Made by a program: the position numbers and the translations under genes. A stretch of DNA of 43,740 bases from Clostridia bacterium (lineage in GTDB: Bacteria; Bacillota; Clostridia; Christensenellales; UBA1242): NCBI GenBank assembly GCA_045601705.1, contig JAZSAE010000017.1, forward strand, positions 1-43,740, written 5' to 3'. The notes below the pieces were generated by a model. The model made no database searches, was not told the origin of the DNA, and saw nothing but the letters and a program-made list of their open reading frames with translations. Below, one piece after another: positions 1,579 to 43,740 of the stretch (position 1 is the stretch's first letter; every line of letters starts with the position of its first letter).

Positions 1579-3542
<1,964 letters not shown>

Positions 3543-3548
3543 ATATAT

Positions 3549-3628
3549 ATGATACCCATAAGATACCTTTTCGGCAAATTATTTTTCACTGATAAAACCT
3601 TGCCGAAGCCCAATTTAAGTATTATAAT
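3549..3628. promoter_or_regulatory. Divergent sigmaA-type promoters directly abutting the start codons
   Basis: Minus strand: TTGCCG-17-TATCAT-6-ATG(3542). Plus strand: TTGCCG-17-TATAAT-8-ATG(3637). Confidence 0.75.
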
Positions 3629-3636
3629 TTGCTGTT

Positions 3637-3888
3637 ATGTTAAACGTTTGGGCAAAAATTATTATCGACCACAAAGTAAAGGAAAGTGTTGTTGTGGAAA
3701 TTGACCCTGACAATTTTTATGAAGGTGTGACACAGATTGCTAGTGCCTTAAAAATTCCTACACCCGTTATCACTCAATCGCAAGTGGACCATTTTTTAGA
3801 ATTCAATCTCTTAAAATTAAAACAACGAGACTTTATTGAAAGTATCCCCTTTGATTTTTTGGAATTTAATGCTATTATTGAAAAATAA
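3637..3888 (+). CDS. Small hypothetical protein, first gene of the mnmEG operon
   Basis: 83-aa ORF with a promoter upstream. Its stop overlaps the mnmE start (TAATG). Confidence 0.75.
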   Translation: MLNVWAKIIIDHKVKESVVVEIDPDNFYEGVTQIASALKIPTPVITQSQVDHFLEFNLLKLKQRDFIESIPFDFLEFNAIIEK

Positions 3889-5165
3889 TGAAAACAATTG
3901 TTGGTATTGCTACTCCGATGGGTTTTGGTGGTGTTGGAATCGTCCGTCTTTCTGGTCCAGACGCACTCACCATTGTTTCAAAAATGTTTAATCGTCCTTT
4001 GCAACCTCGTTATGCAACATTAGGGACTTTAAGTGGCGAAAATTTTACTGATACTGTTTTGGCAATCTACTTCCCTGCACCTCATAGTTTTACAGGTGAA
4101 GATGTTGTTGAAATTCAAGCACACGGTGGTTGGCACTTAATCAACCGAATTATGCAAACAACAATTCAACACGGTGCAACACCAGCCGAACCTGGTGAAT
4201 TTACTCGGATTGCCGTTTTGAATAACAAAATGACATTGACTCAAGCCGAAAGTAGTTTAGATTTAATTCACGCTGAATCTGATGCCGAATTACAAAATGC
4301 TTCACGCTTAATGTCAGGAGATTTAGAAAAACTCGTACAACAAATTGAGAACAATTTAATCGAAGTCCGTGCACAAATTGATGCTTATTTGGACTACCCT
4401 GAAGATTTGGAATCGCCTGATTTACCGATGTCACAAATCAATGAAATTAAAGCAACAATCAATCGATTATTAACAACTGCAAATCACGGACAAATTATCA
4501 AAAACGGAATTAATGTTTGTTTAATTGGTTGTCCAAATGCTGGTAAAAGTAGTTTATTCAATGCCTTAATCGGAGATAACCGTAGCATTGTAACCGATAT
4601 TGCCGGAACAACTACGGACACAATTTCCGAAAAAATTACTTATCAAGGAATTAAAATCAATCTGATTGATACGGCTGGCATTCGTGAAAATGCAACTTCC
4701 TTAATCGAAGCACAAGGAATTGCTCGTGCAAAAACCATCCTACAAGAGGCTGATATTTTATTGATTATTGTCGATGCAACAACACGTCAAATGGTTGACT
4801 TTCCGAAAGATAAAAAACACATTATTGTTTACAACAAAAGTGACCTCTGTCCTGATACACCAAATGATGGTATTGCTGTTTCGGCGAAGACTGGTAAAAA
4901 TATTGAATTATTATTAATAGCAATTGTCAAAATGGCAACCCAAACAGCACCGTCCAGTAGTAGTGTTTATCTTACAAACGAACGACAAACCAATTTATTA
5001 CGTCAAGCAAATCAGCTATTATGTGAAATCAATACGGAACAACCATTAGACCAAATTTCAGCAAACATAACATTGGCTTTAAGTTATATTGGTAAGATTA
5101 CTGGAACAGATATTGATGAACGCACATTAGACGAAATTTTTTCAAAATTTTGTCTTGGAAAATAG
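3888..5165 (+). CDS. mnmE: tRNA modification GTPase MnmE
   Basis: APHSFTGEDVVE, GCPNAGKSS, DTAG, NKSD and C-terminal FSKFCLGK. Confidence 0.97.
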   Translation: MKTIVGIATPMGFGGVGIVRLSGPDALTIVSKMFNRPLQPRYATLGTLSGENFTDTVLAIYFPAPHSFTGEDVVEIQAHGGWHLINRIMQTTIQHGATPAEPGEFTRIAVLNNKMTLTQAESSLDLIHAESDAELQNASRLMSGDLEKLVQQIENNLIEVRAQIDAYLDYPEDLESPDLPMSQINEIKATINRLLTTANHGQIIKNGINVCLIGCPNAGKSSLFNALIGDNRSIVTDIAGTTTDTISEKITYQGIKINLIDTAGIRENATSLIEAQGIARAKTILQEADILLIIVDATTRQMVDFPKDKKHIIVYNKSDLCPDTPNDGIAVSAKTGKNIELLLIAIVKMATQTAPSSSSVYLTNERQTNLLRQANQLLCEINTEQPLDQISANITLALSYIGKITGTDIDERTLDEIFSKFCLGK

Positions 5166-5174
5166 GAGGATACC

Positions 5175-6943: not shown

Positions 6944-7573
6944 TTAACATTCAATGTAATCAATGTTAATTAATTGACCTTCATTAAATTCAAGCTTGTA
7001 GATACTCGGATTTTTTGGTTTCCCATTTAATAGCATTTTATTTTGATATTTTATTTTAAATATTTTGCCATCATACGAGAAACAATCACTAACAGATTGA
7101 AGATAGGAAAGTAAAATAATACCGTGCATAACAACAGCGATATTATCAACATTTGTTTTTATGAAGTCGTTAATGAACGATTGAAATCTTTTATCAACCT
7201 CATTCAAAGATTCACCAGCTTCCATTTTAAAATCTTTATTTACAAAAGATGTTTGGGTAAAATCTGCTGGTATTTCTTTAAGGTATTTGACACCAAATTC
7301 GCGTTCATCAATTCTTGAATCTAGTTTAATTTTTAAACCATTTCTTTCTGCAAGGTATTTTGCTGTTTGAATTGCACGAGGAGAATTACTAGCATAAAGA
7401 GCTTGAATGTTTTTTAATTCATCAACTTCACATAGTTTTCTTGCATTTTCTTCACCCTTAGGGGATAAAATCATATTTCGATTAAATTCTGACCACAATA
7501 CCTCGTCATTATTATCATAATTTTCAATTTCAATAAAAGGTGCTGAATGCCGAATCAAATAGATAGTTTTCAC
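6944..7573 (-). CDS. Histidine phosphatase (phosphoglycerate mutase-like) family protein
   Basis: IYLIRHS (RHG variant), SPRAIQTA, EREFG, GESL and VVMHG. Start moved to GTG 7573, which lies 6 nt after a TATCTT -10-like box. Confidence 0.85.
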   Translation of the reverse strand: MKTIYLIRHSAPFIEIENYDNNDEVLWSEFNRNMILSPKGEENARKLCEVDELKNIQALYASNSPRAIQTAKYLAERNGLKIKLDSRIDEREFGVKYLKEIPADFTQTSFVNKDFKMEAGESLNEVDKRFQSFINDFIKTNVDNIAVVMHGIILLSYLQSVSDCFSYDGKIFKIKYQNKMLLNGKPKNPSIYKLEFNEGQLINIDYIEC

Positions 7574-7610
7574 ATAATCAAGATACACTATCAAAATAGT
7601 ATCTCAAACT

Positions 7611-7647: not shown

Positions 7648-8193
7648 TTATAATTCTTTCAAGCGTTGGGTTAATAAGTTTTTGGTTGTGCCTGTTTTCA
7701 TTTTGGAAACAAAGTCAAACAATAGAATGGTTTGTTTGTGGTTTAATGTTGCTTTCTTGGTACCGGTTTTGCCCATTGATAAAGCAAAGACAGCATCAAC
7801 AACAGCGTGCATACGTTCAGCAAAATCGCCGGTTGGATTGTTTTTAACCATTTTTAAAATGTCTTCGGCTTCGTTAATTTTTGATGCCACAATCAATGAT
7901 GCCAAGAATTGTAAGTTAGCACCAGTACAGCTATCTTCACTGCTACCATAAATCAATTTCAACAATGCTGGATTACTTAGAACAGCAGCACGTAATTTGC
8001 TTTCAGAAACACTTTCCAAAATATTGAAAATATCTTCGCCAGCAAAAGCATTGATATCTTTAATCAATTTGTATTCCCACAAATCAATTGCCATTGTGAA
8101 ATCAATGGTTGCCAACTCTTTTAAAGCCAAAGCACCACCTTGATTTCCAATTTGTACCATTAAATCATATTTACGAATTTCTTTATTGTTCAT
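7648..8193 (-). CDS. Hypothetical all-alpha protein
   Basis: 181-aa ORF with host-like codon use. Own promoter (TTGCAA-17-TATAAT-7-ATG) and own terminator. Confidence 0.8.
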   Translation of the reverse strand: MNNKEIRKYDLMVQIGNQGGALALKELATIDFTMAIDLWEYKLIKDINAFAGEDIFNILESVSESKLRAAVLSNPALLKLIYGSSEDSCTGANLQFLASLIVASKINEAEDILKMVKNNPTGDFAERMHAVVDAVFALSMGKTGTKKATLNHKQTILLFDFVSKMKTGTTKNLLTQRLKEL

Positions 8194-8214
8194 AGCTTAT
8201 ATTATAAACAATTT

Positions 8215-9783
8215 TTATTTTTCTTGCAAGAGTTTCAAGTAGTCTTCTGGATTTGCAACAGCCAAATATAAATACAAACGTGGACCTGCATCACGACCAA
8301 ACAACATATTGTAGAAAATTTTAAAGTATGTTTGTTGACGTTGTTGATTTTCTTTTTTGGTTAATTCTGGTTTGTTAATAATTTCATATAAGAAATTTTG
8401 GATTTCGCTTTCACTATGTGTTGTTTTTAAGAACTCAGCCAACTTCGCCAAAACACCTTTTTGTTCATCATTTAAAGTTGCATAATAATCTTGATTGAAT
8501 GATGGTAATAATTTATAAATACGGTCCGGTTGATAATTTTCCAACCAGAATTTTACCTTCGCGAAACGTTCTTCAAAATTACCCAACGCAGTAATACCAG
8601 CCTGTTGTAACATTTTTAATGTCAAAGCTTGGTTAAACCCAGTCAACGGTGCAACGGTCGCTAAAGTACTAAAATTAACACGGTTACCTTTACTATTTGG
8701 CATTAAGCATAAGTCGAAAACTGAACGATCATATTCTGGCATACTATTTGGATCAGTTAAATATTTTTCTAAATTACGGTCGAATTCCATATAATGACGA
8801 ATAATTGTATCGTCGAAACCAAAATCAAAAGCATCACCTACCGGATATTTTGCATAAAGATAACGTAAAATTTCTGGTTCATAAACTTTTAATAATTGAT
8901 TAGGTGTAATATTTATTCCAGTACTACTGTGCATATTTCCCAAACCACGAATACCAACCCAAGCATAACACGTTGATGCTGGTGGTTCGATACCAAAAAT
9001 TTCACGAGCAATACGTGAACACACATCATAACTACCACCTTCACTATGATGGTCAATACCGGCTGCTTCAAAGCAAACATTTTCGGCTTGCCAACGCATT
9101 GGCCAGTCCACCTTCCAAACTAACTTAATGTTATTTGCCGTTTTTACATCGACACTATGTTGATGTCCACACTTACATTGATACGTTAAAACATCGGTTT
9201 CTTCATTAAAACCTAAAACTGTTGTGTCGTCTTTACCACAAACCGGACAATAAACTGCGACTGGATAATAATTTTCACGTTCGCCTTCACCACCATCTTG
9301 CGTTTTGAAAGACATAATAATGTCATAAATTTGTTTACGCTTTTTAATTGCTTCGGCAATTGCTTTTCCATAACGGCCACTACGGTATTCGTCAGCTTGG
9401 TAAATAACTTGAACTGGAATTTCGTTCATACCTAATTGTGGTAAAGCATTTTCAAATTCACGTTCAAAATACTTGGCACTACTTTCCCCTTCACTGTAAG
9501 GTGATGGAATTTCCACATAAGGCTTACCGATGTGCACAACATATTCGGCCGGAAAGTTTTTGGGAACTTTACGGAAACGGTCAAATTCGTCCCATGAAAA
9601 AATTTCACGAACTTTTTTACCCTTACTTTGTAAAACTTTTGCCACATAGTATTGCGTAATAAATTCACGATAGTTACCGATATGAACACTACCCGACGGC
9701 GAAATACCACTGGCAACAACGTATTCTTCTTGATTCGGATATTTCTTTAAAATTTCTTCTGCTAATTCATAACTCCAATGCAT
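8215..9783 (-). CDS. lysS: Lysine--tRNA ligase, class I
   Basis: SGISPSGSVHIGNYRE (HIGH-like), CPVCG/CKCGH Zn knuckles, KLVWKVDWPMRW, degenerate KMSKS (NMHSSTG) and GPRL. Confidence 0.95.
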   Translation of the reverse strand: MHWSYELAEEILKKYPNQEEYVVASGISPSGSVHIGNYREFITQYYVAKVLQSKGKKVREIFSWDEFDRFRKVPKNFPAEYVVHIGKPYVEIPSPYSEGESSAKYFEREFENALPQLGMNEIPVQVIYQADEYRSGRYGKAIAEAIKKRKQIYDIIMSFKTQDGGEGERENYYPVAVYCPVCGKDDTTVLGFNEETDVLTYQCKCGHQHSVDVKTANNIKLVWKVDWPMRWQAENVCFEAAGIDHHSEGGSYDVCSRIAREIFGIEPPASTCYAWVGIRGLGNMHSSTGINITPNQLLKVYEPEILRYLYAKYPVGDAFDFGFDDTIIRHYMEFDRNLEKYLTDPNSMPEYDRSVFDLCLMPNSKGNRVNFSTLATVAPLTGFNQALTLKMLQQAGITALGNFEERFAKVKFWLENYQPDRIYKLLPSFNQDYYATLNDEQKGVLAKLAEFLKTTHSESEIQNFLYEIINKPELTKKENQQRQQTYFKIFYNMLFGRDAGPRLYLYLAVANPEDYLKLLQEK

Positions 9784-9789
9784 AAAGAC

Positions 9790-9818
9790 AATATATAATT
9801 TTTTTTACAAAAATGCAA
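9790..9818 (-). promoter_or_regulatory. sigmaA promoter for lysS (leaderless geometry)
   Basis: TTGCAT-17-TATATT-6-ATG. Confidence 0.7.
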
Positions 9819-9829
9819 ATATTATCACT

Positions 9830-12250: not shown

Positions 12251-12677
12251 TTCTTGGAATAAACAAATTAGCAATACCTGTAACCAACATCACAATGCTT
12301 GGAATCATTGCATTAGTTAAATCAGTCAAGAACCAGCGCCAAATGGTAATCAACAACAAACCAGTAAATACAATTTGATAAAGTAAGAAAAGTTGGTCAG
12401 CCTTCCAAATTTGTTTGGTTTCCATACGGATAATCATATTACCGACATAGTAAATAATAAAACAACAACCTAAAATAAACAAAATTGGAAAAAGTAAATT
12501 ATACCAAGGATTGCTTTCCGAACCCAAAGGAGCTGACTCGTTTAAACCAAGGTCTCGTTTAAAAGCATTAAAATTTAAAAATAAGTATAAGCAACAAGCA
12601 AATAACAAACCGAGTGCAGAAACAATTTTCAAAATTACAATCGTTTTATTTGAAATACGACGACGTTGCTTTGCCAT
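12222..12677 (-). CDS. Hypothetical membrane protein (about 4 TM)
   Basis: Hydrophobic segments. Starts 1 nt after the addA stop. Confidence 0.75.
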   Translation of the reverse strand: MAKQRRRISNKTIVILKIVSALGLLFACCLYLFLNFNAFKRDLGLNESAPLGSESNPWYNLLFPILFILGCCFIIYYVGNMIIRMETKQIWKADQLFLLYQIVFTGLLLITIWRWFLTDLTNAMIPSIVMLVTGIANLFIPRIIDNDNQDF

Positions 12678-12678
12678 A

Positions 12679-15540
12679 TTAAAATGATACCTTAATTAGT
12701 TCATTGTGTACAGTAGAATAAATGTAAGCTGTAACCGTAAATTGTGGTAACGCTTGCGCATATAAGCGCAACTGTTGACGATATTTTTGGACTAGGTCTT
12801 CTCGTGATAAACGGGTCGTTTTATAATCAACAATAATTGCTTCCGTACCTTTAACAGCCAATAAGTCCATAATACCTTGAACGATTGTTCCATCCTGTAA
12901 ATACAAAAATGGTAATTCACGATAAGTTGTATAACCATTTACTAATGTATCCACAACAGGTGGCAATTTTCCATATTGTAATTGACGGTGATATTCCGTA
13001 CCAAAATCTTTACCACCATCTTGTTGATAAATAACAGGTGCTTGATAATCTTGAACTGGTTCAACAGCACTTGCCAAAGCAGTAACGCTTTGTTTTACTG
13101 GTTTATTTTGATTACCCTGATAATGGCAAAGTGTGATTACTGGTTCAGTGTTGATTTGTTGTATCGGAATTTCTGGTGATATAGCCACATCAGAACGTTC
13201 TTCTACAAGACCAATTGGATTGATTAAATCCATCAAAGAAGTCGGTTGAATACTGTCAGGTTTATATTTCCATTTGCCAACAATATATAACTTTTCCTTT
13301 GGACGAGTTAATGCTACATATAATAAACGTTTCTTTTCTTCAAGTTCTTTAAAATCTTGATACTTGGCAATTCCATAACGCAAAACACGACTTCTTTGGA
13401 CATAATTATCAGTATCGACTGATACTATACTAATCCCCATATTTTTGTCCATAATGATTTTACTTTCTTTCTGTGCAACACTACTCCATTTTGAACCAAC
13501 ATTAAACAAAATAACCATCGGAAACTCTAAGCCTTTGGAGTGATGAATTGTCATTAAACGCACAGCGTTTTTAACGTTTGCACCAACATTAACTTCAATC
13601 TTGGCAATGTTGTGCTCAATCAAATACAGGTAACGTGCAACAGTATCAAAATCACTGACACCACGAATAGTTGTTAAAAATGTGTTAACGATTGGAATTT
13701 CCAACATTCCAAATTCAGTTGCAACTTGTGTTAATACTTCATAGGTTGATTGAGCACGCCCTAGCTCACGATACCTTGCCAAAGCATTATCACATTTGGC
13801 AACTTTCTCGATTAAAGTTGGGTTCAACTGTTCCAAACGCAAATGAGCCAACTCGTCATTTGTACAATGGAAAAAGTTTTGTAAAACAAGGTAACGAGAT
13901 AAATCATTAGTTGGATTCATTGCTGCAAACAAGAAATGATTCAAAAGTGCAATCTCAGGTTCTTGTAAAATTTCCACACTATATTCCACCACACAAGACA
14001 CACCACGTTGTAACAAATAATTTTGTAATACTTTTAAAGGTTTTTTTGTTTCACAAAGAATCGCAATTTCAGACAACGGACGATTAGCACTTTTAATTTG
14101 TTGATACACAAGTTCCATTTGAGCATTATCATTTTCGGCTGTTTCAATTTTGACAGCTTGCCGAACTGCATCAATATCAACCTGATTTTGTAATTCAAAT
14201 TTATGTCCTGTTTCATAATCATTAAGCAACCCCTTCATTACCAGGTTAACAAAATGTAAAATTGGTTCTTCACTACGCCAATTCTTGTTCAAGCGAATCA
14301 TTTCAATCAAATCTTCGTGAATTACTGCGTCGAATAATTCAGGGTCGCTTTCACGAAAACCATAAATACTTTGCTTAATATCACCAACAATACAAAAGAA
14401 TTTATCATTACCACGTAAAATATCAATAATACGATATTGTACCGGATTAGTATCTTGCCCCTCATCAACAAAAATATATTTATACTGTGCACAAATTGCT
14501 TGTACTGCTTCGGGATGCATTAAGACTTTTAAAGCATATTTTTCTAAATCATTATAATCTAATTTTTTATATTCCATTTTTTTGGCTGTATATGCTGCAT
14601 CAAAAGCCTGTACTAAATGAAGTAACTGCTGAACAATATGACGGTCCTGTTGCATATCAGTTTGAATTTGTAAAATTGGAAACTTAAATTCCTCCATTAT
14701 ATTATTACAAACTGTTTTAAACTGATTACGCATAACTTTAAAGTCATCATACAATTCTTTATTAAAATCTTTATTATAAGCTAATTGGGGGAAAGTTAAA
14801 TCTAGATTTTGAAAATCTTGATAAGTTTTTGCTGTAATAATTTGGTTAGCAAGATTGATGACAAAATCAGTTAAAACTGAATTTTGATTAAACTCAATAA
14901 AGATTTGGCGATATCTTTTTGCCAAACGATGATAATGTTCAATCAAAGCGCAAATTGCACCATTGTTTTCCAATTGTGTGTCATACGCACACAAAGCAGT
15001 ATCACGCAACCATTCATCTTTATCGTGTCGAGTTTCTAAAAAGTTATGAATTTTGATAACAACATCACGTAAATCATTGAGTTTACGACTGGCGAGTAGT
15101 AAATCGACAGCATCTTTCACGTCTGCATAATTATCTAAAACCACTTTTTCAAAAACAAGTGTTTTTATTTTTTCACTTTCGATTGTGTCCATAACAGCAA
15201 AACTTGGACTGACTTCGGCAATAGTAAACCAGGCACGAATGATACCAGCACAAAAACTATGAAAAGTACCAATCGCCGCTGCTTGTAATTCGGCATAAGA
15301 AAAACGATTCCCTAAAGACTGACTAAGTTGTTCTTTCAGTTTATGGCGCATATCTTGCGCCGAAGCATCGGTGAAGGTTAAAACTAATAACTGGTCAAAT
15401 CGAGTTTTACCACCTTGAATAAGGGTTGCAATACGATTGATAATCGTTGTCGTTTTACCACTACCAGCACTGGCTGAAATAGCAATTTTTGATGAATTTG
15501 AGTCAATGACTTTTTGTTGATCTTTAGTTGGTTTTCCCAT
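12679..15540 (-). CDS. addA: AddA/RexA-type UvrD helicase-nuclease
   Basis: ASAGSGKT, LTFT, GTFHSFC, VDEGQDTN, VGDIKQSIYGFR, MTIHHSKGLEF and YVALTR, plus nuclease GIMD..IVDYKT..QLRLY. SD GGAGG. Confidence 0.9.
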   Translation of the reverse strand: MGKPTKDQQKVIDSNSSKIAISASAGSGKTTTIINRIATLIQGGKTRFDQLLVLTFTDASAQDMRHKLKEQLSQSLGNRFSYAELQAAAIGTFHSFCAGIIRAWFTIAEVSPSFAVMDTIESEKIKTLVFEKVVLDNYADVKDAVDLLLASRKLNDLRDVVIKIHNFLETRHDKDEWLRDTALCAYDTQLENNGAICALIEHYHRLAKRYRQIFIEFNQNSVLTDFVINLANQIITAKTYQDFQNLDLTFPQLAYNKDFNKELYDDFKVMRNQFKTVCNNIMEEFKFPILQIQTDMQQDRHIVQQLLHLVQAFDAAYTAKKMEYKKLDYNDLEKYALKVLMHPEAVQAICAQYKYIFVDEGQDTNPVQYRIIDILRGNDKFFCIVGDIKQSIYGFRESDPELFDAVIHEDLIEMIRLNKNWRSEEPILHFVNLVMKGLLNDYETGHKFELQNQVDIDAVRQAVKIETAENDNAQMELVYQQIKSANRPLSEIAILCETKKPLKVLQNYLLQRGVSCVVEYSVEILQEPEIALLNHFLFAAMNPTNDLSRYLVLQNFFHCTNDELAHLRLEQLNPTLIEKVAKCDNALARYRELGRAQSTYEVLTQVATEFGMLEIPIVNTFLTTIRGVSDFDTVARYLYLIEHNIAKIEVNVGANVKNAVRLMTIHHSKGLEFPMVILFNVGSKWSSVAQKESKIIMDKNMGISIVSVDTDNYVQRSRVLRYGIAKYQDFKELEEKKRLLYVALTRPKEKLYIVGKWKYKPDSIQPTSLMDLINPIGLVEERSDVAISPEIPIQQINTEPVITLCHYQGNQNKPVKQSVTALASAVEPVQDYQAPVIYQQDGGKDFGTEYHRQLQYGKLPPVVDTLVNGYTTYRELPFLYLQDGTIVQGIMDLLAVKGTEAIIVDYKTTRLSREDLVQKYRQQLRLYAQALPQFTVTAYIYSTVHNELIKVSF

Positions 15541-18082: not shown

Positions 18083-18089
18083 TAACCTA

Positions 18090-18163
18090 AAAATAACATT
18101 TTTCACCTTAAATAGCAACTCATGAAAATAGATATTTACAACTCAGTTGACTACCATTAAACT
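18090..18163. promoter_or_regulatory. Divergent sigmaA promoters for addB and the U32 gene
   Basis: Minus strand: TTGCTA-17-(TGt)TATTTT-7-GTG. Plus strand: TTTACA-17-TAAACT-9-ATG. Confidence 0.6.
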
Positions 18164-18172
18164 AGAAATAAG

Positions 18173-19360
18173 ATGAAAACAAATACACAAGTTGAATTAT
18201 TAGCACCTGCTGGCGATGTGAAACGTGCCATTATCGCATTGGATTATGGGGCCGATGCTATCTACTTAGGTGGCAAGGATTTCAGTTTACGTGCTCACGC
18301 AGCAAATTTTACCGATGATGAAATTCGTGAAATTGTACAAATTGCCCACAGTCGTGGTAAAAAAGTTTATGTGACCGTGAATATTATTCCACGCAATAAT
18401 GACTTCGACCAAATCATTGATTACGCAAAGCGTTTGGATACCTTAAAAATTGATGCAGTCATTGTTGCTGACTTAGGTGTAATCAAAGTTTTTCGTGAAC
18501 ATACATCTTTGGCAATTCACGTTTCCACGCAAGCTAATATTACCAACAAACACACAGCTTTAGAATTTGTGCGTTTAGGTGCCACACGCTTAGTCTTAGC
18601 ACGTGAATTAAATATTACTGAAATTAAAGAAATTTGTGATGCTGTAAAAGGACAAGCTGAAATCGAAGTTTTTGTCCACGGTGCAATGTGCGTTTCTTAC
18701 AGTGGTCGTTGTTTGCTATCTAACTATATGACGAACCGTTCCAGTAATCGTGGTGATTGTGCGCACTCTTGTCGTTATAAATATGCTTTGCAAGAAATGA
18801 AACGCCCAAATGAATACTGGCCAATTGAAGAAGACGAACACGGTACTTATATTATGAATAGCCGTGACTTATGTTTAATCAACCGATTGCAAGAATTGAT
18901 TGACGCTGGTGTCGCAAGTTTTAAAATTGAGGGTCGAGTAAAAAGTACTTACTATGTTGCCGGTGTCACACACGCTTATCGTCAAGCTTTGGATGGTATC
19001 AAACGTGACTACCTAACCGAACTAGATAAAATTTCGCACCGACCATACACGACAGGTTTTACTTTCGAAAAAGTACCAACACAATATTACCCTGCTGCAC
19101 GTGAAGAACAAACTTATGAATTTATTGGTTTAGTCACCGACAGCAATACAATGTTATTAAAAAATAAAATCAACCCTGGTGAGACCATTGAAATCTTATC
19201 ACCAAACCTTGATGTTGATGGGAAAACTTTCGTTTGGCAAGGCGCAATGCAAAACCAACCTGAAACAAGCGTGGAAATTTGTGGTTGTCCTTACAACTTA
19301 CATGCTAACGATATATTAAGGCGTCCAAAGCCGCAGCAACCGTCGTCTGACCAGATTTAA
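18173..19360 (+). CDS. U32 'peptidase' family protein, likely TrhP-type tRNA hydroxylase
   Basis: ELLAPAG, GADAIYLG, HVSTQAN, EVFVHGAMCVSYSGRC, NRGDCAHSCR and FKIEGR. Confidence 0.92.
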   Translation: MKTNTQVELLAPAGDVKRAIIALDYGADAIYLGGKDFSLRAHAANFTDDEIREIVQIAHSRGKKVYVTVNIIPRNNDFDQIIDYAKRLDTLKIDAVIVADLGVIKVFREHTSLAIHVSTQANITNKHTALEFVRLGATRLVLARELNITEIKEICDAVKGQAEIEVFVHGAMCVSYSGRCLLSNYMTNRSSNRGDCAHSCRYKYALQEMKRPNEYWPIEEDEHGTYIMNSRDLCLINRLQELIDAGVASFKIEGRVKSTYYVAGVTHAYRQALDGIKRDYLTELDKISHRPYTTGFTFEKVPTQYYPAAREEQTYEFIGLVTDSNTMLLKNKINPGETIEILSPNLDVDGKTFVWQGAMQNQPETSVEICGCPYNLHANDILRRPKPQQPSSDQI

Positions 19361-20228: not shown

Positions 20229-20229
20229 A

Positions 20230-22987: not shown

Positions 22988-23021
22988 ATTTTAATATATC
23001 ATTAAGCAATTAATCTGCAAA

Positions 23022-25307: not shown

Positions 25308-25313
25308 TGCAAA

Positions 25314-25378
25314 ATTATGACAAAAAATACAAAACGGATACTGTCGCTTTGTGTCAAATTAACACTAACGTTGTCAAA
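25314..25378 (-). promoter_or_regulatory. Spo0A-activated spoIIE promoter with three 0A-like boxes
   Basis: TGTCGCT (25342), TGTCAAA (25352) and TGTCAAA (25372) versus consensus TGNCGAA, spaced 10 and 20 bp. Extended -10 TGtCATAAT lies 6 nt before the ATG. Confidence 0.7.
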
Positions 25379-25396: not shown

Positions 25397-25425
25397 TTGT
25401 GGCGTCAAGAAAAATTGTATATAAT
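25397..25425 (+). promoter_or_regulatory. sigmaA promoter for secA (leaderless geometry)
   Basis: TTGTGG-17-TATAAT-6-ATG(25432), no SD. Confidence 0.7.
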
Positions 25426-25431
25426 GGTTGT

Positions 25432-29814: not shown

Positions 29815-31556
29815 TCGCTCGCCTCCGTTAGTTTATCTTGCAAGAAAAATTTTGCATATTCTTGATTGGTTGCCAATAATCCAGCGTGTGTTCCTTTTAC
29901 ATAACTGTGGTCAGCTTTGGCAAAGAAAACTTCATCAGCATTTTCACAGATAATAGGCTTGGTAGTTGTAAAGATACAAGCCTTATTTTCGGCACGTAAT
30001 TTCTTTAAAACACTTTCCACCACATCATTAGATAAATTGATAAAACTACCATCGAAAATATAGAATTCGGCAGGTTTCATAATGCAACGAACTAAATTGA
30101 TATATGCCTTAACTTCTTGTGGCAATTTTGTACGACTAGAAATTGGTGTATCCAAAAATGATGGTAAGACTGCCAAGTTTGATGCACCGATTTCATTAAA
30201 TGCTGATAAAATTTGTTCATCAGTTAATTCTGGATTAAAAATACGAATATTCTCACGCACTGTGCCCGTTATAAACTCGGGATAAGTTGGACAATAAGAA
30301 ATCAATTTAGCACGGTAGTAGTTTTTGTTAATTTCCTTTGCGTTAATACCATTTATCAAAACAACACCAGCTTTTGGTTCAATATACCGTAAAAGAATTT
30401 TAATTAAAGTTGTACGCCCTGCACCAACTTCACCACAGAATGCAACAATTTTTCCTTTCTGTAATTCCATTGATAAATTTTCCATTGTAATACGACCATT
30501 CCAATAACGATGGGAAACTTGATACATTACCAATGAACTACCAAATTCAGTATCAATTTCGGTAATACCACTATCAATATCTTCTTCTGGCAATTGCATA
30601 AATTGGTCAATACGCTGATAAGCGATGCGTCCACGTGTCATTGGATTAATAATTAATTTAAAAATGTTATTGGTTGCTGTAGTACACAAAGAAATATACT
30701 GCAAAACCGTATTAACGATAACTAACTGCTCGGCAACGTTGGCAACGGTCACTGACATTGCACTAAATGCAATAATAGCAACGGTCGCAATCCCAAAAAT
30801 AATATTATTAACACGACTGAAAATGTGTTTAGATTGGTCAAGGTCAAAAATTTCTTTGGTTAATTCTCGGTTTTGACGTGCTGCTTCGGCAGAACGTTCA
30901 GTTTGTTTTCCAAGGAAACGAATATCCCGTGCGCCAGCAATACTTTCACGTGTAGCAACAAAAGATTTATCATAGGCTTCCACAGCCGCAGGTAAACGTT
31001 TATTGATAATAGCACGATTAATGAATAAAATAATAATTTCGATAAAAACAGCACCAATAATAAACAATACATAAATTGGTGATAAGGTTAAAATCAATAC
31101 GCAACTACCTAAAATAGTAATAATAAAATAAATAATTGCTTGCAAGTATTGTTCGTAATTATATTTAACCCAAGACGTATCTTCAATCATACAAGATAAG
31201 AACTTACTTGTTCCATATTCATACAACACATTAGTTGGCACACGTGTCATTTTTTCATACAACATATCACGGGCGTTACGACGACATTTAGCTCCGTAAA
31301 CACTGAGACGGTTACGTGCATAAAGCGAAACAAAAAAGATAATTATCAACAAACCGAGTACAATACCTGCGCTAATTAAAAAATCACTTGTGTCTGGAAT
31401 AAGACCAGCATCATTATTAACTTTTTGCGTAACGAGATTTTTTAAAATCATTGGATACAAAATGTTTAAGACTTCCATGAAAGCGAAAAAGAAAACGGCC
31501 ACAAGTAAATCTTTGGCCACACCTTTTTGGAAACCATACTTTTGCATCTTACGCAT
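29811..31556 (-). CDS. ABC exporter half-transporter (TMD+NBD) with a degenerate NBD
   Basis: TMD followed by GEVGAGRTT, GTVRENI, LPQEV, YIFDGS and GTHAGLL. Promoter TTGCAA-17-TATATT-8-ATG. Confidence 0.85.
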   Translation of the reverse strand: MRKMQKYGFQKGVAKDLLVAVFFFAFMEVLNILYPMILKNLVTQKVNNDAGLIPDTSDFLISAGIVLGLLIIIFFVSLYARNRLSVYGAKCRRNARDMLYEKMTRVPTNVLYEYGTSKFLSCMIEDTSWVKYNYEQYLQAIIYFIITILGSCVLILTLSPIYVLFIIGAVFIEIIILFINRAIINKRLPAAVEAYDKSFVATRESIAGARDIRFLGKQTERSAEAARQNRELTKEIFDLDQSKHIFSRVNNIIFGIATVAIIAFSAMSVTVANVAEQLVIVNTVLQYISLCTTATNNIFKLIINPMTRGRIAYQRIDQFMQLPEEDIDSGITEIDTEFGSSLVMYQVSHRYWNGRITMENLSMELQKGKIVAFCGEVGAGRTTLIKILLRYIEPKAGVVLINGINAKEINKNYYRAKLISYCPTYPEFITGTVRENIRIFNPELTDEQILSAFNEIGASNLAVLPSFLDTPISSRTKLPQEVKAYINLVRCIMKPAEFYIFDGSFINLSNDVVESVLKKLRAENKACIFTTTKPIICENADEVFFAKADHSYVKGTHAGLLATNQEYAKFFLQDKLTEASE

Positions 31557-31577
31557 GTGTTTTTAATATACATAAGA

Positions 31578-32258
31578 ATGCGCTTCTTTGCAATTAGTTT
31601 ATGTGTTATTGCCCTTGGTTTAGGCATTTGGTTAGACACAATACAACAAACTACACCAGTAATTGCTCCCGAACAATTTCATATTGTCCTTGACGCAGGA
31701 CACGGTGGTTTAGATAACGGAGCAAGTATTGATTGCGTCAGCGAAGCCGTCATCAATCTGCAAATTGTCAAAGTTTTAGAACAAGAACTACGCAACCGTG
31801 GCTGTGCCGTTTCGTTAACACGTGTTGACAGCGAGAGTTTAAATTCACCGTACGCCAGAAACAAAAAAGTGGACGATATGGCAAAGCGTCGAGCCAAAAT
31901 TAAAGACCTCCAACCAGATTTAGTTATTTCAATTCACCAAAATACTTATCCTTTAACCTCGGTAAATGGCTTACAATGTTTCTATGCGAACGAAACACCA
32001 GGCAGTCAAGATTATGCAACAGCGATACAAACACAGTTCAATCAAAGCAATCTTCCCTTTAAGAAAAAACCTAAACCGACAGATTTTAATCTCGTGGAAC
32101 ACTCCCCATGCCCAGCCGTATTGATTGAATGTGGTTTTCTAACTAATCCACGAGAACGTAAATTATTGCAATCACCAAATTACCAGCAAATATTGGCTTA
32201 TCATATTACAACAGCTGTTCTTTGTGAATACGAACGACAACAAACTGCACAAGTTTAA
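31578..32258 (+). CDS. cwlD: N-acetylmuramoyl-L-alanine amidase (Amidase_3), CwlD-like
   Basis: N-terminal TM, LDAGHGG, EAVINL, KVDDMAKRR, ISIHQN and LIECGFLTN. Confidence 0.75.
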   Translation: MRFFAISLCVIALGLGIWLDTIQQTTPVIAPEQFHIVLDAGHGGLDNGASIDCVSEAVINLQIVKVLEQELRNRGCAVSLTRVDSESLNSPYARNKKVDDMAKRRAKIKDLQPDLVISIHQNTYPLTSVNGLQCFYANETPGSQDYATAIQTQFNQSNLPFKKKPKPTDFNLVEHSPCPAVLIECGFLTNPRERKLLQSPNYQQILAYHITTAVLCEYERQQTAQV

Positions 32259-33022: not shown

Positions 33023-34570
33023 TTAAACTAAAACACGGTCGTGCATCTTATCACCAGTGATTTCAATCACACGAGTTGCAACTGTATCGATAATTTCTTC
33101 GTCACTGGTATAAAATAACATTACGGCCTTGCTACGAATCATACCTTGGTTCAAGGCTGTAATACTTTCCAAATCCAAGTGATTAGTTGGTTCGTTAAAG
33201 ATTAAAAGATTTCCCTGCTCTAACATTGTTTTTGCTAACATACAACGCACTCTTTCACCACCAGACAAAACATCGGCTTTTTTCAAAGCTTCTTCACCAG
33301 AGAATAACATACGCCCTAACCAACTACGAATGAAAGTTTCATTTGTATCTTGCGAATATTGTTTAAGCCAATCTAACAAATTTAAATTAACACCTTCAAA
33401 ATAAGAACGATAATCTGCTGGCAAATATGAAGTCGTAATAGTCTTGCCGATAGTTACTGTACCACTATCGGCTTTTTCTAAGCCCATAATAACATTAAAC
33501 AATTTATCCATACGGACACTTTTATCGGTTAAGAAAGCAACTTTTTCGCCCTTGTTAATACGGAACGAAACGTTACGAAAGAAACCATTGACGGTTAAAT
33601 TCTCAACAGCCAAAATTTCATTACCTGGCTCACGAGCGCATTCAAAATTGATATATGGATATTTACGTGAAGATGGTTTAATATCTTCAATCGTGAGTTT
33701 TTCTAATTCTTTTTTACGGCTGGTTGCTTGACGTGATTTACTTGCATTCGCCGAGAAACGAGCAATAAAATCTTTTAATTCTTGTGCACGAGCTTCGGCT
33801 TTTTTATTTGCTTCTTTTTGTTGTTTTAATAGCAACTGACTGGTTTCATACCAGAAGTCATAGTTACCAACAAACATATTGATTTGATTAAAGTCAACAT
33901 CACAAATGTGTGTACAAACTTGGTTCAAGAAGTGACGATTGTGCGACACAATAATAGTAATATTTTTGAAATCCAACAAGAATTCTTCGAGCCAATGTGT
34001 ACCAGCCAAATCCAAGTTGTTTGTCGGTTCATCTAGAATCAAAATATCTGGATTACCAAACAAAGCACGTGCCAACAAAGCCTTAACTTTGATTTTCGCA
34101 TCCAAATCTTTCATTTTTTGGTCGTGGAATTCTTCGCTGACACCCAAACCGGACAACATAATACGAGCATTACTTTCAGCATCCCATCCATCTAATTCGG
34201 CAAATTCAGCTTCCAAAGCACCTAACTCATTTCCCTGTTCTTCGGTCATTTCGGGCAACGCATAATACTTTTCTTTTAAAGCAATAATTTCTGCCAAACG
34301 TTGATGACCACCAATCACAGTGTTAACAACGGTCAATTCGTCAAAGGCATTTTGGTTTTGCGCTAAAGTAGAAATACGTTTATTCTTACCAACAACAACT
34401 TCACCTTTATTCGGAGTAATTTCGCCAGATAAAATTTTCAAAAAAGTTGATTTACCTGCCCCATTTGCTCCAATAATGCCATAACATTCACCCGGTAAAA
34501 ATTTCAAATTAACGTCTTTAAATAAAACACGTTTTCCATATTGCAAAGATACATTTACTACTTGAATCAT
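33023..34570 (-). CDS. ABC-F family ATPase (YbiT/YkpA-like)
   Basis: Two NBDs and no TMD. GANGAGKST, LDEPTNNLD, GNYDFW, FSANASKSRQATSRKK linker and LSGGE. Promoter TTTCAA-17-TATACT-7-ATG. Confidence 0.93.
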   Translation of the reverse strand: MIQVVNVSLQYGKRVLFKDVNLKFLPGECYGIIGANGAGKSTFLKILSGEITPNKGEVVVGKNKRISTLAQNQNAFDELTVVNTVIGGHQRLAEIIALKEKYYALPEMTEEQGNELGALEAEFAELDGWDAESNARIMLSGLGVSEEFHDQKMKDLDAKIKVKALLARALFGNPDILILDEPTNNLDLAGTHWLEEFLLDFKNITIIVSHNRHFLNQVCTHICDVDFNQINMFVGNYDFWYETSQLLLKQQKEANKKAEARAQELKDFIARFSANASKSRQATSRKKELEKLTIEDIKPSSRKYPYINFECAREPGNEILAVENLTVNGFFRNVSFRINKGEKVAFLTDKSVRMDKLFNVIMGLEKADSGTVTIGKTITTSYLPADYRSYFEGVNLNLLDWLKQYSQDTNETFIRSWLGRMLFSGEEALKKADVLSGGERVRCMLAKTMLEQGNLLIFNEPTNHLDLESITALNQGMIRSKAVMLFYTSDEEIIDTVATRVIEITGDKMHDRVLV

Positions 34571-34630
34571 ATTTGGTAGTATATCACATTCTGGACCGAA
34601 TTGAAACGTTATTTTATTAACTTAATTAAG

Positions 34631-35779: not shown

Positions 35780-36276
35780 TCCCCCTGTTTAATTTTTTTC
35801 AACATTTTTTGTTCAGCCTTACTTAATCGAGAATTTTCAAATGATTTAACTTTGACTGGTGTAACACCATCGCCATTTGCAACGGCCTTTTTTCTTACAG
35901 GCATTTGGTCAAAAGCTGATTGTGACGCTGTAATTCCTTGTGTACCTTCGGCAATTCCAAAAATGCGTTTTGCCACAGACTGTACAAACTCTTCCGAACT
36001 CAAAGCCCCCATTGCTTGTTCCAAATCAGCTTTCTGATAAGGGTCATCGGCTTTAAATTCTGTATTTTCAAGAAATGCTTTCGCACGGTCTTTTGCATAC
36101 TGCTTACGTAAAAACTCTACTTCGGCTTCGGCAGTACGTTCGGCAATATTTTGTGTAGATATCTTACGTGCTTCGTCATGTATTTTTAAACGTTGAGTTA
36201 GTTTGTCCATACCTATGATTAACAACCATAGGATAACTAAACCAGCAATGCCCAAAAAAAGCCATAACCAATCCAT
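35776..36276 (-). CDS. Hypothetical protein with an N-terminal TM anchor
   Basis: 166-aa ORF. Promoter TTGTCA-17-TAAGTT-6-ATG. Confidence 0.75.
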   Translation of the reverse strand: MDWLWLFLGIAGLVILWLLIIGMDKLTQRLKIHDEARKISTQNIAERTAEAEVEFLRKQYAKDRAKAFLENTEFKADDPYQKADLEQAMGALSSEEFVQSVAKRIFGIAEGTQGITASQSAFDQMPVRKKAVANGDGVTPVKVKSFENSRLSKAEQKMLKKIKQGD

Positions 36277-36312
36277 ACCAATAACTTAACGTGAAAATAA
36301 AATTTTGACAAC

Positions 36313-39300: not shown

Positions 39301-39333
39301 ATTTTTGTCTAATTGATCTTGATTTTTTTCCAT
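36313..39333 (-). CDS. RND (AcrB/SwrC-like) efflux permease with remodelled extracytoplasmic domains
   Basis: DLFPSM, FLFLRSIK, GMLVDNSVVVLENI, MPSTDEG, GVVINNGIL and RLRPIFMTALTT. Promoter TTGACA-17-CATAAT-8-ATG. Confidence 0.92.
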   Translation of the reverse strand: MEKNQDQLDKNIQDNWLAKVGVHKPYTVFVCIMAIIVLGVFAFSKMSVDLFPSMNLPYAVVVLNPNESYLMEQYNEKLADVVDRAKKAVENEDRYTDDATGMVLAGDVNEMMLFLAGQIESTSINPENLVLKHYLLNIQTEGTPQEILASVMPNDRQLEVLTDEALLALSGVNGIKNTSSTTMFQFGLVMLTLEYNSDATVDLTALSLAFENMALDDTVAYGTKFNKTILKIDPSLLAVMNVTVAYEGETDDDKKQEWLENEVLNKISTTVGVGTVSSNIDSSMTNQDQAWQSSKDGLVNTYSIAIQKSSNAVTTEVCANVIVTLEKLKAENPNFTYDIISSQGDYINESIGSVGENLIVGGVLALIVLFLFLRSIKMTLAIGISIPLALVGTFVAMYFMGINLNIISMAGLALAVGMLVDNSVVVLENIFRLRNKGMSLKDACVKGASQIMMAMLASTLTTICVFFPMFFLEGMMMEIFIDLVWVVILSLICSFVVAVMFLPSIVSTFKINPKQEKVVVANKKPNFWQKMCTGWSSFCEKAGRVFEKTVRFAINKKWLTVVLAFVLFIGSACLLLVNGFILMPSTDEGTLSISAALTTDGKLVAGNKVADKNTEKDLAQPLYNEVMDVLGNDIEKCVIAYDSGANVLSGGVASITMEVKLKDDRSLTTDQASEKLYNALQNYENNYFADFDVATSSMASGLMANEVSVTLTVDARANATETAYEVACGVLDDFSVALENKFADKMDELGIRAVIYDQNKGVKIVKSNGRYAATISIKANPSADTTKIQSTLNQYLDELMNSDDFKDKSVSILDNGFEEQMTETYSSMGMALLVGFLLIYLVMVAIFQSFLMPFIILICVPLGFTGAFILLAMCNMPLSLPALIGCLILMGVVINNGILAVDYANQARRDGLSVKEALVASVRTRLRPIFMTALTTILAMVPMAFGWSFFNPGGSGALMQPLAVVSIGGLLFGTITTLLVVPAFYAIFCRDKKTKVAIVENEQPVK

Positions 39334-39389
39334 AAGTACTTATTATGTACCTAGTTGGAATTTTTGTCAATGACGCTCGTACAAAATTC

Positions 39390-42091: not shown

Positions 42092-42122
42092 AAAAAAGTC
42101 CGCACCAACGGACTTCTTTTTT
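42092..42122. terminator. Intrinsic terminator downstream of the SPFH gene
   Basis: AAGTCCG-CACCAA-CGGACTT with A/T tails. Confidence 0.8.
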
Positions 42123-42138
42123 ATAAGTTTTTATTTTT

Positions 42139-43032
42139 TTATTTTGACTTAGTTGTCTTTTTGGTTGGTTCGGATTGGCTCAATGTTTCTTTAATCGAAG
42201 TAAACAAAGTCGCAACATTTGCTAAATCATTTGGCACGATAATTTTGGTCGCTTCGCCATTTGCCATAACTTTTAAGGCTTCGTAACCTTGCAAAGTTAA
42301 GTAAGCAGCATCAGGTTTTGCTTCCATAATTTTTTCGATTGCACACTTTTGACCTTCGGCTTCGGTAAGCAATGCGATTTTACGTGCTTCGGCTTTCAAG
42401 ATTTCAGCTTCTTTTTCACCTTCGGCAACCAAGATTTTACTACGCTTTTCACCTTCGGCTAACAAAATGTTTTCACGACGTTCACGTTCAGCACGCATTT
42501 GTTTTTCCATACTTTCTTGAATTGCGGCTGGTGGTAAAATGTTTTTCAATTCAACACGATTAACTTTAATACCCCAAGGGTCAGTTGCTGTGTCAATAAT
42601 TTCACGCATTTTGGTATTAACGGTATCACGACTGCTTAAAGTTTCGTCTAATTCCAATTCACCAACAATATTACGTAAAGTCGTTGCTGTCAAGTTTTCG
42701 ATTGCCGACATTGGACGTTCAATACCATAACTGTACAATTTTGGGTCAACAATTTGGAAGAAAACAACGCTGTCGATTTGCATCGTAACATTATCTTTAG
42801 TAATTACAGGTTGTGGACGGAAATCAGCAACTTGTTCCTTCAAAGAAATCATCGGCAATGCACGGTCAATGAAAGGCATAATAAAACGTAGTCCCGTTCC
42901 CAAAGTACGGTGGTACTTACCTAAACGTTCGACAATCACAGCAGTTCCCTGCTTGACGATACGGATTGAAAGCGCCAAAATTACGACTAAGGCAACACCA
43001 ATCACAATAATTGCAATAATCCAAGGTTCCAT
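42139..43032 (-). CDS. SPFH/band-7 stomatin-like protein (QmcA-like)
   Basis: IVERLGKY, VITKDNV, TTLRNIVG, WGIKVNRVELK and MEKQMRAERERR. Confidence 0.95.
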   Translation of the reverse strand: MEPWIIAIIVIGVALVVILALSIRIVKQGTAVIVERLGKYHRTLGTGLRFIMPFIDRALPMISLKEQVADFRPQPVITKDNVTMQIDSVVFFQIVDPKLYSYGIERPMSAIENLTATTLRNIVGELELDETLSSRDTVNTKMREIIDTATDPWGIKVNRVELKNILPPAAIQESMEKQMRAERERRENILLAEGEKRSKILVAEGEKEAEILKAEARKIALLTEAEGQKCAIEKIMEAKPDAAYLTLQGYEALKVMANGEATKIIVPNDLANVATLFTSIKETLSQSEPTKKTTKSK

Positions 43033-43072
43033 ATTTATTTTTTTTATTCTCCTTTTATTTTAATTATGTTTT

Positions 43073-43534
43073 TTATTTACTGGTTGTTTCTTTATCAGTC
43101 TTTGCCGTGTCAACTGGTTGAACAATCATCTTGTTACCTTCCACACGTTCAATTGTCACAAAATCATCTTTCTTCAATTCAGCATCGCAAACAGCAGTCC
43201 AAACGACATCATTGATTTTGATAGAAGATTTACCTTCAACAACATCGGCCAACAAACGAACTTTCTTACCAAAATATTGGTCAACATTAGTTGAAATTGC
43301 TGGCTTCTTTAAAAACTTTTTTACTAAAGGGCGTGTTCCAATAATTGCGACAATTGCCACAATGAAGAAAGTTAAAATTTGCCAAACTAATTCAACCTCA
43401 CAAGCTGCCAAAATTAAGGCAATAATTGCAGCCAACGAAAAGCAACAAGAGAAAAAATCTACCGTGAAAAATTCTAATAATAGTGTCGCAGCAATTACGA
43501 CTGACCAAATAATAATCATCATTGTTGTTGTCAT
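43073..43534 (-). CDS. Short NfeD-family protein (YbbJ-like), partner of SPFH
   Basis: TM segments with LLEF and TRPL, then an OB-fold with WTA and VEGNKMIV. Promoter TGGACA-18-TACAAT-6-ATG. Confidence 0.88.
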   Translation of the reverse strand: MTTTMMIIIWSVVIAATLLLEFFTVDFFSCCFSLAAIIALILAACEVELVWQILTFFIVAIVAIIGTRPLVKKFLKKPAISTNVDQYFGKKVRLLADVVEGKSSIKINDVVWTAVCDAELKKDDFVTIERVEGNKMIVQPVDTAKTDKETTSK

Positions 43535-43553
43535 CTTTATATTGTATCAAAAA

Positions 43554-43740
43554 TTATTTTCTTTTGTCCACTTTTTTGTCCACTTTTTTTTGCAAAGCGC
43601 TGATACGCTCACGGTACTGAATCGCTAATTCAAAGTTTAAATTCTGACTGGCAGCATTCATCAATTCCGTCAACTGTTCAATTGTCAACTCATCTTGAAC
43701 AGCCGAATTTTCGCCCTGCTCTTTTTGTGTAATATACAAA
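43554..43740 (-). CDS. uvrB: C-terminal UVR domain, probably the end of excinuclease subunit UvrB (truncated by the window edge)
   Basis: IEQLTELMNAASQNLNFELAIQYRERI matches the UvrB/UvrC motif at the very C-terminus. Confidence 0.65.
   Translation of the reverse strand, partial: LYITQKEQGENSAVQDELTIEQLTELMNAASQNLNFELAIQYRERISALQKKVDKKVDKRK

Follow-up and report, generated by a model that had tools for sequence, protein, structure and literature searches.

Predicted leaderless mRNAs for about a third of first cistrons in one clade of small-genome gut Clostridia

Discussions of leaderless initiation usually center on Actinobacteria, Deinococcus, and archaea. We describe here a 43,740-nucleotide stretch of DNA from a member of the Clostridia (contig JAZSAE010000017.1 of assembly GCA_045601705.1; Christensenellales, UBA1242), called the window in the following, in which many genes at the head of a transcription unit have a -10 box directly before the start codon and no Shine-Dalgarno (SD) motif. 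From the promoter motifs we predict that, in one clade of this lineage, leaderless mRNAs are made from about 16-21% of the genes overall and from 25-37% of the first cistrons. The closest described layout is group C of the GeneMarkS-2 classification, in which a Pribnow box is located 6-8 nt before the first genes of operons, SD motifs precede internal and leadered genes, and 25-50% of the operons are predicted to be leaderless (PMC6028130). According to the same source, group C accounts for 90% of the Actinobacteria and 97% of Deinococcus-Thermus, with Mycobacterium, Streptomyces, Corynebacterium, and Deinococcus-Thermus as examples. Its Supplemental Table S4 assigns 36 of 1064 Firmicutes to group C, 24 of which are Lactobacillales, and 366 of 370 Clostridia to group A. 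The survey of Zheng et al. (2011) described "TA-led" genes with a TANNNT signal about 10 bp upstream and, in low-GC genomes, a TG peak before it, and validated them by dinucleotide shuffling; it reports leaderless genes in 56 of 209 Firmicutes, with a mean of 4.2% of the genes (range 2.4-16.6%) and a concentration in Lactobacillales (Lactococcus/Streptococcus) and Mycoplasma (PMC3160421). For Clostridioides difficile 630, the published start map gives six leaderless mRNAs, i.e., with a 5' untranslated region (UTR) of less than 10 nt, among 1646 transcription start sites (TSSs), and about 90% of the 5' UTRs contain an SD motif (bioRxiv 10.1101/2020.08.10.244764). The translation of leaderless mRNAs via the terminal AUG, the initiator tRNA, and IF2 is established in other organisms (described in part in PMC10783764).

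The genome analyzed here shares with group C the placement of the Pribnow box, which peaks 6-7 nt before the starts, the SD motifs at the remaining genes, and the fraction of first cistrons, the 25-37% coming from our own motif counts. It differs from group C genomes in belonging to a Clostridia lineage, in its size of about 0.84 Mb, in the confinement of the trait to one clade of a family, and in its low-GC DNA, due to which the full TATAAT and the TTG of the -35 box are visible. The TANNNT signal about 10 bp upstream resembles that of the "TA-led" genes, but in these Clostridia its net share of the genes amounts to at least 16-21%. The class, the promoter type, and the anti-SD are shared with C. 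difficile 630, in contrast to the predicted leaderless state of about one third of the first cistrons. The mechanism is already known, namely as the group C layout; new are the lineage and the clade-limited, graded distribution. A literature search for leaderless starts in this lineage, which covered sources outside the subscription journals, found no paper describing them.

The window is a whole contig of an 836,631-base genome bin in 73 contigs (G000), which is 92% complete and has a GC content of about 34-35%. An alternative genetic code was rejected, because TGA or TAG readthrough hardly extends long open reading frames (ORFs), and translation table 11 was kept. Genes were called with our own script (ORFs of at least 50 codons, codon-usage log-odds score, greedy overlap removal, longest-ORF start), and 722 of the 778 called genes were used, i.e., those with an ORF that is closed upstream and lies at least 80 nt from a contig end. 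A start was counted as positive when a hexamer ending 4-9 nt upstream had an A as its second and a T as its sixth base and matched TATAAT in at least four of six positions, and when the sum of the -10 matches, the matches of the best -35 box at spacers of 16-18, and one point for a TGn was at least 9. An earlier note on the window, which had proposed the leaderless pattern from the sequence, had named positional enrichment over shuffled controls as a test, and the enrichment is pronounced. In the genome 133 of the 722 starts are positive, compared to 16.5±3.8 (maximum 27) in 200 dinucleotide shuffles and to 19-31 at decoy spacings, and only 46 of 3705 internal in-frame ATGs (1.2%) are positive. 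In the window 12 of 34 longest-ORF starts are positive versus 0.71±0.80 (maximum 4) in 500 dinucleotide shuffles, and 15 of 33 when the starts of the earlier note are used with the same shuffle control. By the same longest-ORF measure, positive starts are about twice as frequent in the window as in the genome (35% versus 18%).

The distances between box and start are also far from random. A search anchored on the promoter (TTGNNN, spacer of 16-18, TANNNT, then an ATG that opens at least 100 codons) retrieved 55 cases at a gap of 6 nt and 63 at 7 nt, compared to a mean of about 13 per gap at gaps of 20-59 nt. The exact word TATAAT alone occurs 11, 18, 24, and 14 times at gaps of 5-8 nt, versus about three. 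The 133 positives have gaps of 5 nt (30 cases), 6 nt (39, the mode), 7 nt (33), and 8 nt (20), and 121 of them (91%) start with ATG. Among the 159 ATG starts with a TANNNT at a gap of 5-8 nt, TTG is present at a spacer of 17 in 56 and at a spacer of 18 in 18 cases, versus about 4.4 expected at any spacing. The base frequencies of the -35 T, T, and G are 69%, 56%, and 45%, and a G is found at the TGn position in 43%. The fixed location of TTG at 17-18 bp together with the G of the TGn indicates that the boxes are complete sigma-70-type promoters and not mere AT-rich words; as is typical for sigma-70/sigma-A, the two hexamers are 17±1 bp apart and the TGn is optional. The AT-matched genome G030 of another family (GC content 0.37) has 13 positives among 331 starts versus 17.7 at decoys, and G022 has four among 350. 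An Rfam scan of the window gave no family at the gathering score, and no riboswitch or leader RNA accounts for the upstream regions.

How common the leaderless layout is depends on the genes considered. For all genes, 18% of the longest-ORF starts are positive, or about 15-16% net of decoys, and when any candidate start within 60 codons is accepted, 221 of 727 genes are positive versus 90-92 at decoy spacings, i.e., about 20% net. Divergently transcribed genes must each own a promoter, and with the longest start 44 of 178 (25%) of them are positive versus 5-7 at decoys. The count rises to 69 (39%) versus 17-19 when any candidate within 30 codons is accepted, and it is 93 versus 36-52, or about 37% net, with the -10 box alone. 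When the 293 first-gene-like ATG starts are sorted by their best promoter within 150 nt, 85 (29%) have it at a gap of 4-9 nt, 113 have it elsewhere, and 95 have none; the short gap thus accounts for 43% (85 of 198) of the first-gene-like starts with any promoter scoring at least 9. SD motifs of at least 5 nt precede 16% of the divergent, 26% of the spaced co-directional, and 43% of the tightly packed (less than 25 nt) co-directional ATG genes. The leaderless motif is two to three times rarer at the tightly packed internal genes, which carry an SD, and is present at 13% of them, which means that some promoters lie inside the final part of the gene upstream, as for orf8193 (see below). The earlier note had concluded that first cistrons are leaderless by default, and this is overstated, because 25-37% are leaderless and 16-26% of the first cistrons have a 5-nt SD. 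The data support that leaderless starts make up about a third of the first cistrons and are the commonest single layout. The median divergent intergenic region is 73 nt long in G000 and 55 nt in the relative G008, versus 196 and 173 nt in outgroups.

For the window, the earlier note had listed 15 leaderless first genes, and all of their motif strings, spacers, and start distances were matched letter for letter. As it had stated, none of the 15 starts has an SD core of at least 4 nt located 4-13 nt upstream, and 14 of them possess both a -35 and a -10 box, spoIIE being the only one without a -35 box. Pfam bears out the names given to first genes (GT2, histidine phosphatase, class I lysyl-tRNA synthetase, AddB, U32, RecR, SpoIIE, SecA, ABC, ABC-F, RND, NfeD) and to internal genes (GAPDH, MnmG, AddA/UvrD, GerA, SPFH). 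The claim that internal genes keep strong SDs holds for gap, mnmG, addA, and the gene at 10953 (cores of 5-6 nt, 5-8 nt upstream), but not for the SPFH/Band-7 gene (42139-43032, reverse strand). Its sole SD-like word, AAGGAG, is found 16 nt before the ATG with an A-rich run in between, and this spacing is unusually long, far above the usual 5-10 nt. Three more leaderless-type starts were found beyond the 15, at mnmE (3888), orf12677, and holA (20228).

In the following, promoters are given as -35 box, spacer, -10 box, gap, and start codon with its position. At the left end of the window, the gene of the GT2 glycosyltransferase (3540..3577, reverse strand; PF00535) has TTGCCG-17-TATCAT-6-ATG(3542) and no SD, and its G008 orthologue has TTGCGT-18-TATTAT-6-ATG. 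The forward strand carries orf3637 (3600..3639) with TTGCCG-17-TATAAT-8-ATG(3637), an exact match that is not kept at the G008 match, and mnmE (3851..3890) with TTGATT-16-TATTAT-9-ATG(3888) and a TGn before the -10 box, for which G008 has TTGATA-16-TATTAT-7-ATG. The additional orf12677 (12675..12712, reverse strand) has TGTACA-17-TATCAT-6-ATG(12677) and TATACA-17-TATCAT-6-ATG in G008. The U32 peptidase gene (18135..18175, forward strand) is preceded by TTTACA-17-TAAACT-9-ATG(18173), and by ATGACG-17-TATACT-7-ATG, two codons off, in G008. The start of holA (20226..20262, reverse strand; TTTACT-17-TATGCT-5-ATG(20228)) is weaker and not kept in G008. For recR (22985..23020, reverse strand) we found TTGCAG-16-TATATT-5-ATG(22987) with a TGn before the -10 box; G008 has TTGCCC-18-TATATT-6-ATG, and G032 has an SD (AGGTG) instead.

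The remaining promoters of the right half include that of spoIIE (25305..25319, reverse strand; PF07228, PF19732), which is an extended -10 box, TGT-CATAAT-6-ATG(25307), with no clear -35 box; the sampled DNA of G008 yielded no orthologue of this gene. The first gene of an ABC exporter pair (31554..31593, reverse strand) has TTGCAA-17-TATATT-8-ATG(31556), with TTGCTA-17-TATATT-8-ATG in G008. ABC-F (34568..34606, reverse strand) has TTTCAA-17-TATACT-7-ATG(34570) with a TGn before the -10 box, TTACCA-17-TATAAT-8-ATG in G008, and TTGACT-17-AATAAT-5 in G032. With TTGTCA-17-TAAGTT-6-ATG(36276), orf36276 (36274..36311, reverse strand) has a weak -10 box (three of six matches to TATAAT) and is below the scoring threshold. 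The RND transporter gene (39331..39370, reverse strand; PF00873) with TTGACA-17-CATAAT-8-ATG(39333) and nfeD (43532..43570, reverse strand) with TGGACA-18-TACAAT-6-ATG(43534) and a TGn before the -10 box both reach a score of 11.

Comparison with relatives indicates that the promoter elements are under conservation. The promoter of the class I lysyl-tRNA synthetase gene (9781..9818, reverse strand; TTGCAT-17-TATATT-6-ATG(9783); PF01921) keeps its -35 box, its -10 box, and its discriminator length in all 17 genus loci (17 of 17) that include an N-terminus, while the letters of spacer and discriminator vary; the most distant member of the genus (G007) has TTGACT-17-TATACT-6-GTG. The same is true for orf8193 (8191..8229, reverse strand; TTGCAA-17-TATAAT-7-ATG(8193)), also in 17 of 17 genus loci; its -35 box lies within the last codons of the upstream lysyl-tRNA synthetase gene, and the secA promoter footprint behaves likewise in 11 genus loci. 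In G008, of which 371 kb were sampled (76-78% protein identity), 11 of 13 window genes keep a -10 box at a gap of 5-8 nt and two do not, in a comparison that allowed ±8 codons and thereby favors a match. Genome-wide, the orthologues of leaderless G000 genes are leaderless in 49 of 69 cases and SD-led in four in G008, versus two of 26 leaderless and 11 SD-led in G030, and none of 17 leaderless and eight SD-led in G022.

The pattern also corrects start codons, as the earlier note had claimed. The longest-ORF rule calls secA, addB, and the phosphatase gene 7-13 codons too long. The true start of secA (25397..25434, forward strand; TTGTGG-17-TATAAT-6-ATG(25432)) is located 13 codons inside the longest ORF; the proof comes from the conserved M-G-L/F N-terminus and from relatives that have non-start codons at the 25393 position. 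The N-terminus M-G-(L/F/I) is present in 17 of 17 genomes compared. In the leaderless clade, five of six genomes have a TATAAT 5-8 nt upstream of this start and no SD, and 10 of the 11 remaining genomes have an SD 5-13 nt before it. The secA -10 box of two sister genera is located about 22 nt upstream with an SD lying in between, and the promoter is about 15-20 nt further from the same ATG. The leaderless form of secA looks like the result of the loss of a leader of about 15 nt. The GTG start of addB (18080..18118, reverse strand; TTGCTA-17-TATTTT-7-GTG(18082), TGn before the -10 box; PF21445) aligns with an ATG in G008 that follows a TATAAT at a gap of 5 nt. The start of the histidine phosphatase gene (7571..7607, reverse strand; TTGAGA-16-TATCTT-6-GTG(7573)) is the least supported one; its N-terminus could be aligned in just one other genome, and PF00300 matches from residue 4. 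For 22 orthologue pairs of leaderless G000 genes and SD-supported G030 or G022 genes, the N-termini agree within ±5 residues in 12 and within ±10 residues in 17. For example, the offset is -2 for mnmE and its SD-led G022 orthologue, +4 for nfeD and its SD-led G030 orthologue, and 0 for the proteins starting with MKIIFMG, MARLTII, MKFICDG, and MFEEVKV. Pfam domains start at residues 1-8 in GT2, MnmE, LysRS, SecA, and RecR.

The data show the geometry of the motifs, their statistical excess and conservation, that the start codons are correct, and the phylogenetic distribution discussed below. The explanation that we regard as very likely, taken as a whole and with transcription starts placed by promoter geometry alone, is the following. 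Ordinary housekeeping sigma-70/sigma-A promoters (TTGnnn-17±1-TAnnnT, often with a TGn) have their -10 box end 5-8 nt (mode 6) before the start codon. As transcription usually starts about 6-7 nt after the -10 box, RNA polymerase would begin at the A of the ATG or 1-3 nt before it. The product would be an mRNA without a 5' leader and without an SD, and gaps of 8-9 nt would result in leaders of 1-3 nt. A ribosome carrying the initiator tRNA would directly recognize the 5'-terminal AUG, and operon-internal genes as well as a minority of first genes would be translated via SD pairing with the intact anti-SD. The anti-SD GGATCACCTCCTTT is indeed intact in all five complete 16S rRNA 3' ends of the genus. 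A 16S match was obtained in seven of 19 genus genomes, two of the seven being cut or partial, and none was found in the genome bin of the window itself, so that the anti-SD was read from five relatives in the genus.

Several points weigh against this explanation. Where transcription begins and how the mRNAs are translated are predictions from the sequence, and the home-made gene calls make the fractions rough, with 166 "other" starts at GTG or TTG that are probably miscalled. Five of the 22 orthologue pairs have an N-terminal offset of at least 11 residues. Weak members of the set are orf36276 with its -10 box TAAGTT, spoIIE without a -35 box, and the phosphatase GTG with little comparative support, and the promoters of orf3637 and holA are not kept in G008. 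In addition, the gaps of 8-9 nt at orf3637, U32, ABC, RND, and mnmE imply leaders of 1-3 nt and not of zero. One may ask whether the boxes are simply functionless TANNNT and TTGNNN words that occur by chance near starts in AT-rich DNA. With 34% GC and loose criteria, TANNNT-like hexamers (at least four of six matches) are indeed found at 24% of decoy positions. However, the eight-fold excess over dinucleotide shuffles, the sharp peak at gaps of 6-7 nt, the -35 box at exactly 17-18 bp, the missing excess in the equally AT-rich genomes G030, G116, G079, and G109, and the conservation of the elements across the genus all contradict it; the shuffle, decoy-spacing, and AT-matched-genome controls have already refuted chance, and we give it practically no credence.

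Two other interpretations accept that the motifs are meaningful. A-rich or AT-rich stretches before starts favor initiation in many bacteria, and the TA-rich box about 10 nt upstream could be a non-SD translation signal, or could reflect the need for an unstructured region, in a longer 5' UTR with the promoter further upstream, as in GeneMarkS-2 group B; our knowledge of the transcription starts from promoter geometry alone leaves room for this. However, a translation signal needs neither a TTG exactly 17-18 bp upstream nor a TGn, tightly packed internal genes are depleted in the motif and use SDs instead, and the anti-SD is intact. Group B motifs are described as preceding all genes (PMC6028130), unlike the motif in G000. 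Moreover, divergent intergenic regions with a median of 73 nt are too short for two leaders plus promoters, and we consider such a signal very improbable. The promoters could alternatively be real and the true start codons be located downstream, so that short leaders are hidden inside the annotated coding sequences. This draws on the fact that starts were called by the longest ORF or by the promoter itself, and on the five of 22 pairs with large offsets. Against it stand the 12 pairs within ±5 residues of SD-supported outgroup starts, some of them with an offset of 0, the M-G-L/F start of SecA common to 17 of 17 genomes, the Pfam domains that begin within the first eight residues in the five proteins named above, and the 91% ATG among leaderless starts; downstream starts as the general explanation therefore seem very improbable to us.

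The distribution of the leaderless-promoter signal was followed as the share of positive longest-ORF starts, using samples of 40-100 kb except for G000, G008, G030, and G022. The genus of the window comprises 19 species genomes of 0.6-1.1 Mb, and 121 genomes of 58 genera drawn from the family are all 0.6-1.6 Mb in size, compared to 1.4-3.2 Mb in other families of the order. Positives amount to 18% in G000 (3% at decoys), 19% in G008 (4%), 15% in G046 (3%), 18% in G130 (4%), 14% in G032 (2%), and 10% in G088 (1%). They drop to 9% versus 6% in G040, to 2-5% versus 5-8% in G116, G079, G054, and G109, which belong to the same family (1.1-1.3 Mb, GC content 0.32-0.40) and have an SD at 38-54% of the starts, and to 4% versus 5% and 1% versus 3% in G030 and G022 of other families. 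For G112 and G122, of which 180 kb each were analyzed, a sharp small peak was found at a gap of 6 nt (9 and 12 genes, versus 0-4 and 0-6 genes at each of the other gaps from 2 to 39 nt), so that about 6-9% of their genes would be leaderless. The 100-kb sample of G126 (C2:1-100000) contained just 48 scorable genes, versus 66-104 in other 100-kb samples, possibly due to weak training on little sequence or to an unusual stretch. In a maximum-likelihood tree of SecA the six genomes with a strong signal form one branch with a support of 100/100. This is consistent with a single origin but is no proof of it, because the tree was built from one gene, and the trait that was measured also served to define the groups.

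The suggestion of the earlier note that the lineage uses leaderless initiation thus stands insofar as the frequency is very unusual for Bacillota, and it has to be narrowed to one clade within a family of small genomes. Genome reduction as a sufficient cause was ruled out by the same-family genomes of 1.1-1.3 Mb without the signal (G116, G079, G054, G109), and neither AT content nor genome size alone explains the trait. A multi-domain S1 homologue (TIGR00717, below the cut-off everywhere) is present in G022 and G030, where it lies inside ORFs of about 720-750 amino acids, and in G122 and G112. It was not found in nine of the 11 family genomes searched, i.e., five of the leaderless clade and G116, G079, G054, and G109. 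The absence of S1 as a correlate was ruled out, because the homologue was not found in these four SD-dominated genomes either.

Several further features of the window deserve mention. The class I (archaeal-type) lysyl-tRNA synthetase (8215-9783, reverse strand; PF01921 with 362 bits) is encoded in 17 of 18 other genomes of the genus, and the query had no match in 12 genomes from 12 other families of the order, which suggests that it has taken the place of the usual class II enzyme specifically in this lineage. Divergent from it lies a GerA-family gene (9830-10960, forward strand), to which no convincing promoter, -35 box, or SD could be assigned. The spacer of 46 nt between both genes (9784-9829) is filled by the promoter of the synthetase gene, and the conserved letters upstream of the GerA-family gene are the reverse complement of the -35 region of that promoter. 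The GerA-family match begins at profile position 110 of 466. This genome of about 0.84 Mb still encodes SpoIIE with both domains (23022-25307, reverse strand) and a GerA-family germination protein. The adjacent pair of ABC exporter half-transporters (28105-31556, reverse strand) has weak ABC_tran scores of 45 and 55 bits. Positions 1-2000 of the window have a GC content of 0.30 versus about 0.36 elsewhere and include a gene for a CfrBI-type restriction endonuclease (608-1477; PF09516) with a strong SD.

The predicted start architecture has practical consequences, as starts in these gut bacteria, which are abundant and uncultured, will be called wrongly by gene finders that assume SDs. The six sampled genomes that form one SecA clade show a strong signal, some sister genera show a weak one, and in others none was detected. 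It is conceivable, although we regard this as a tentative idea that is somewhat less probable than its negation, that one clade of a family of gut Clostridia with genomes of about 1 Mb has switched at least a third of its transcription units from short SD leaders to leaderless mRNAs with the anti-SD left intact, which would represent an independent, graded origin in Bacillota, with sister genera of equally small genome size that are SD-dominated or only 6-9% leaderless. If this is true, the family would offer a natural series of genomes for finding changes in the ribosome or in initiation factors that permit leaderless expression. The distribution dissociates the trait from both genome size and base composition, and its graded nature permits a comparative search for what lets a Firmicute ribosome tolerate or even prefer 5'-terminal AUGs.

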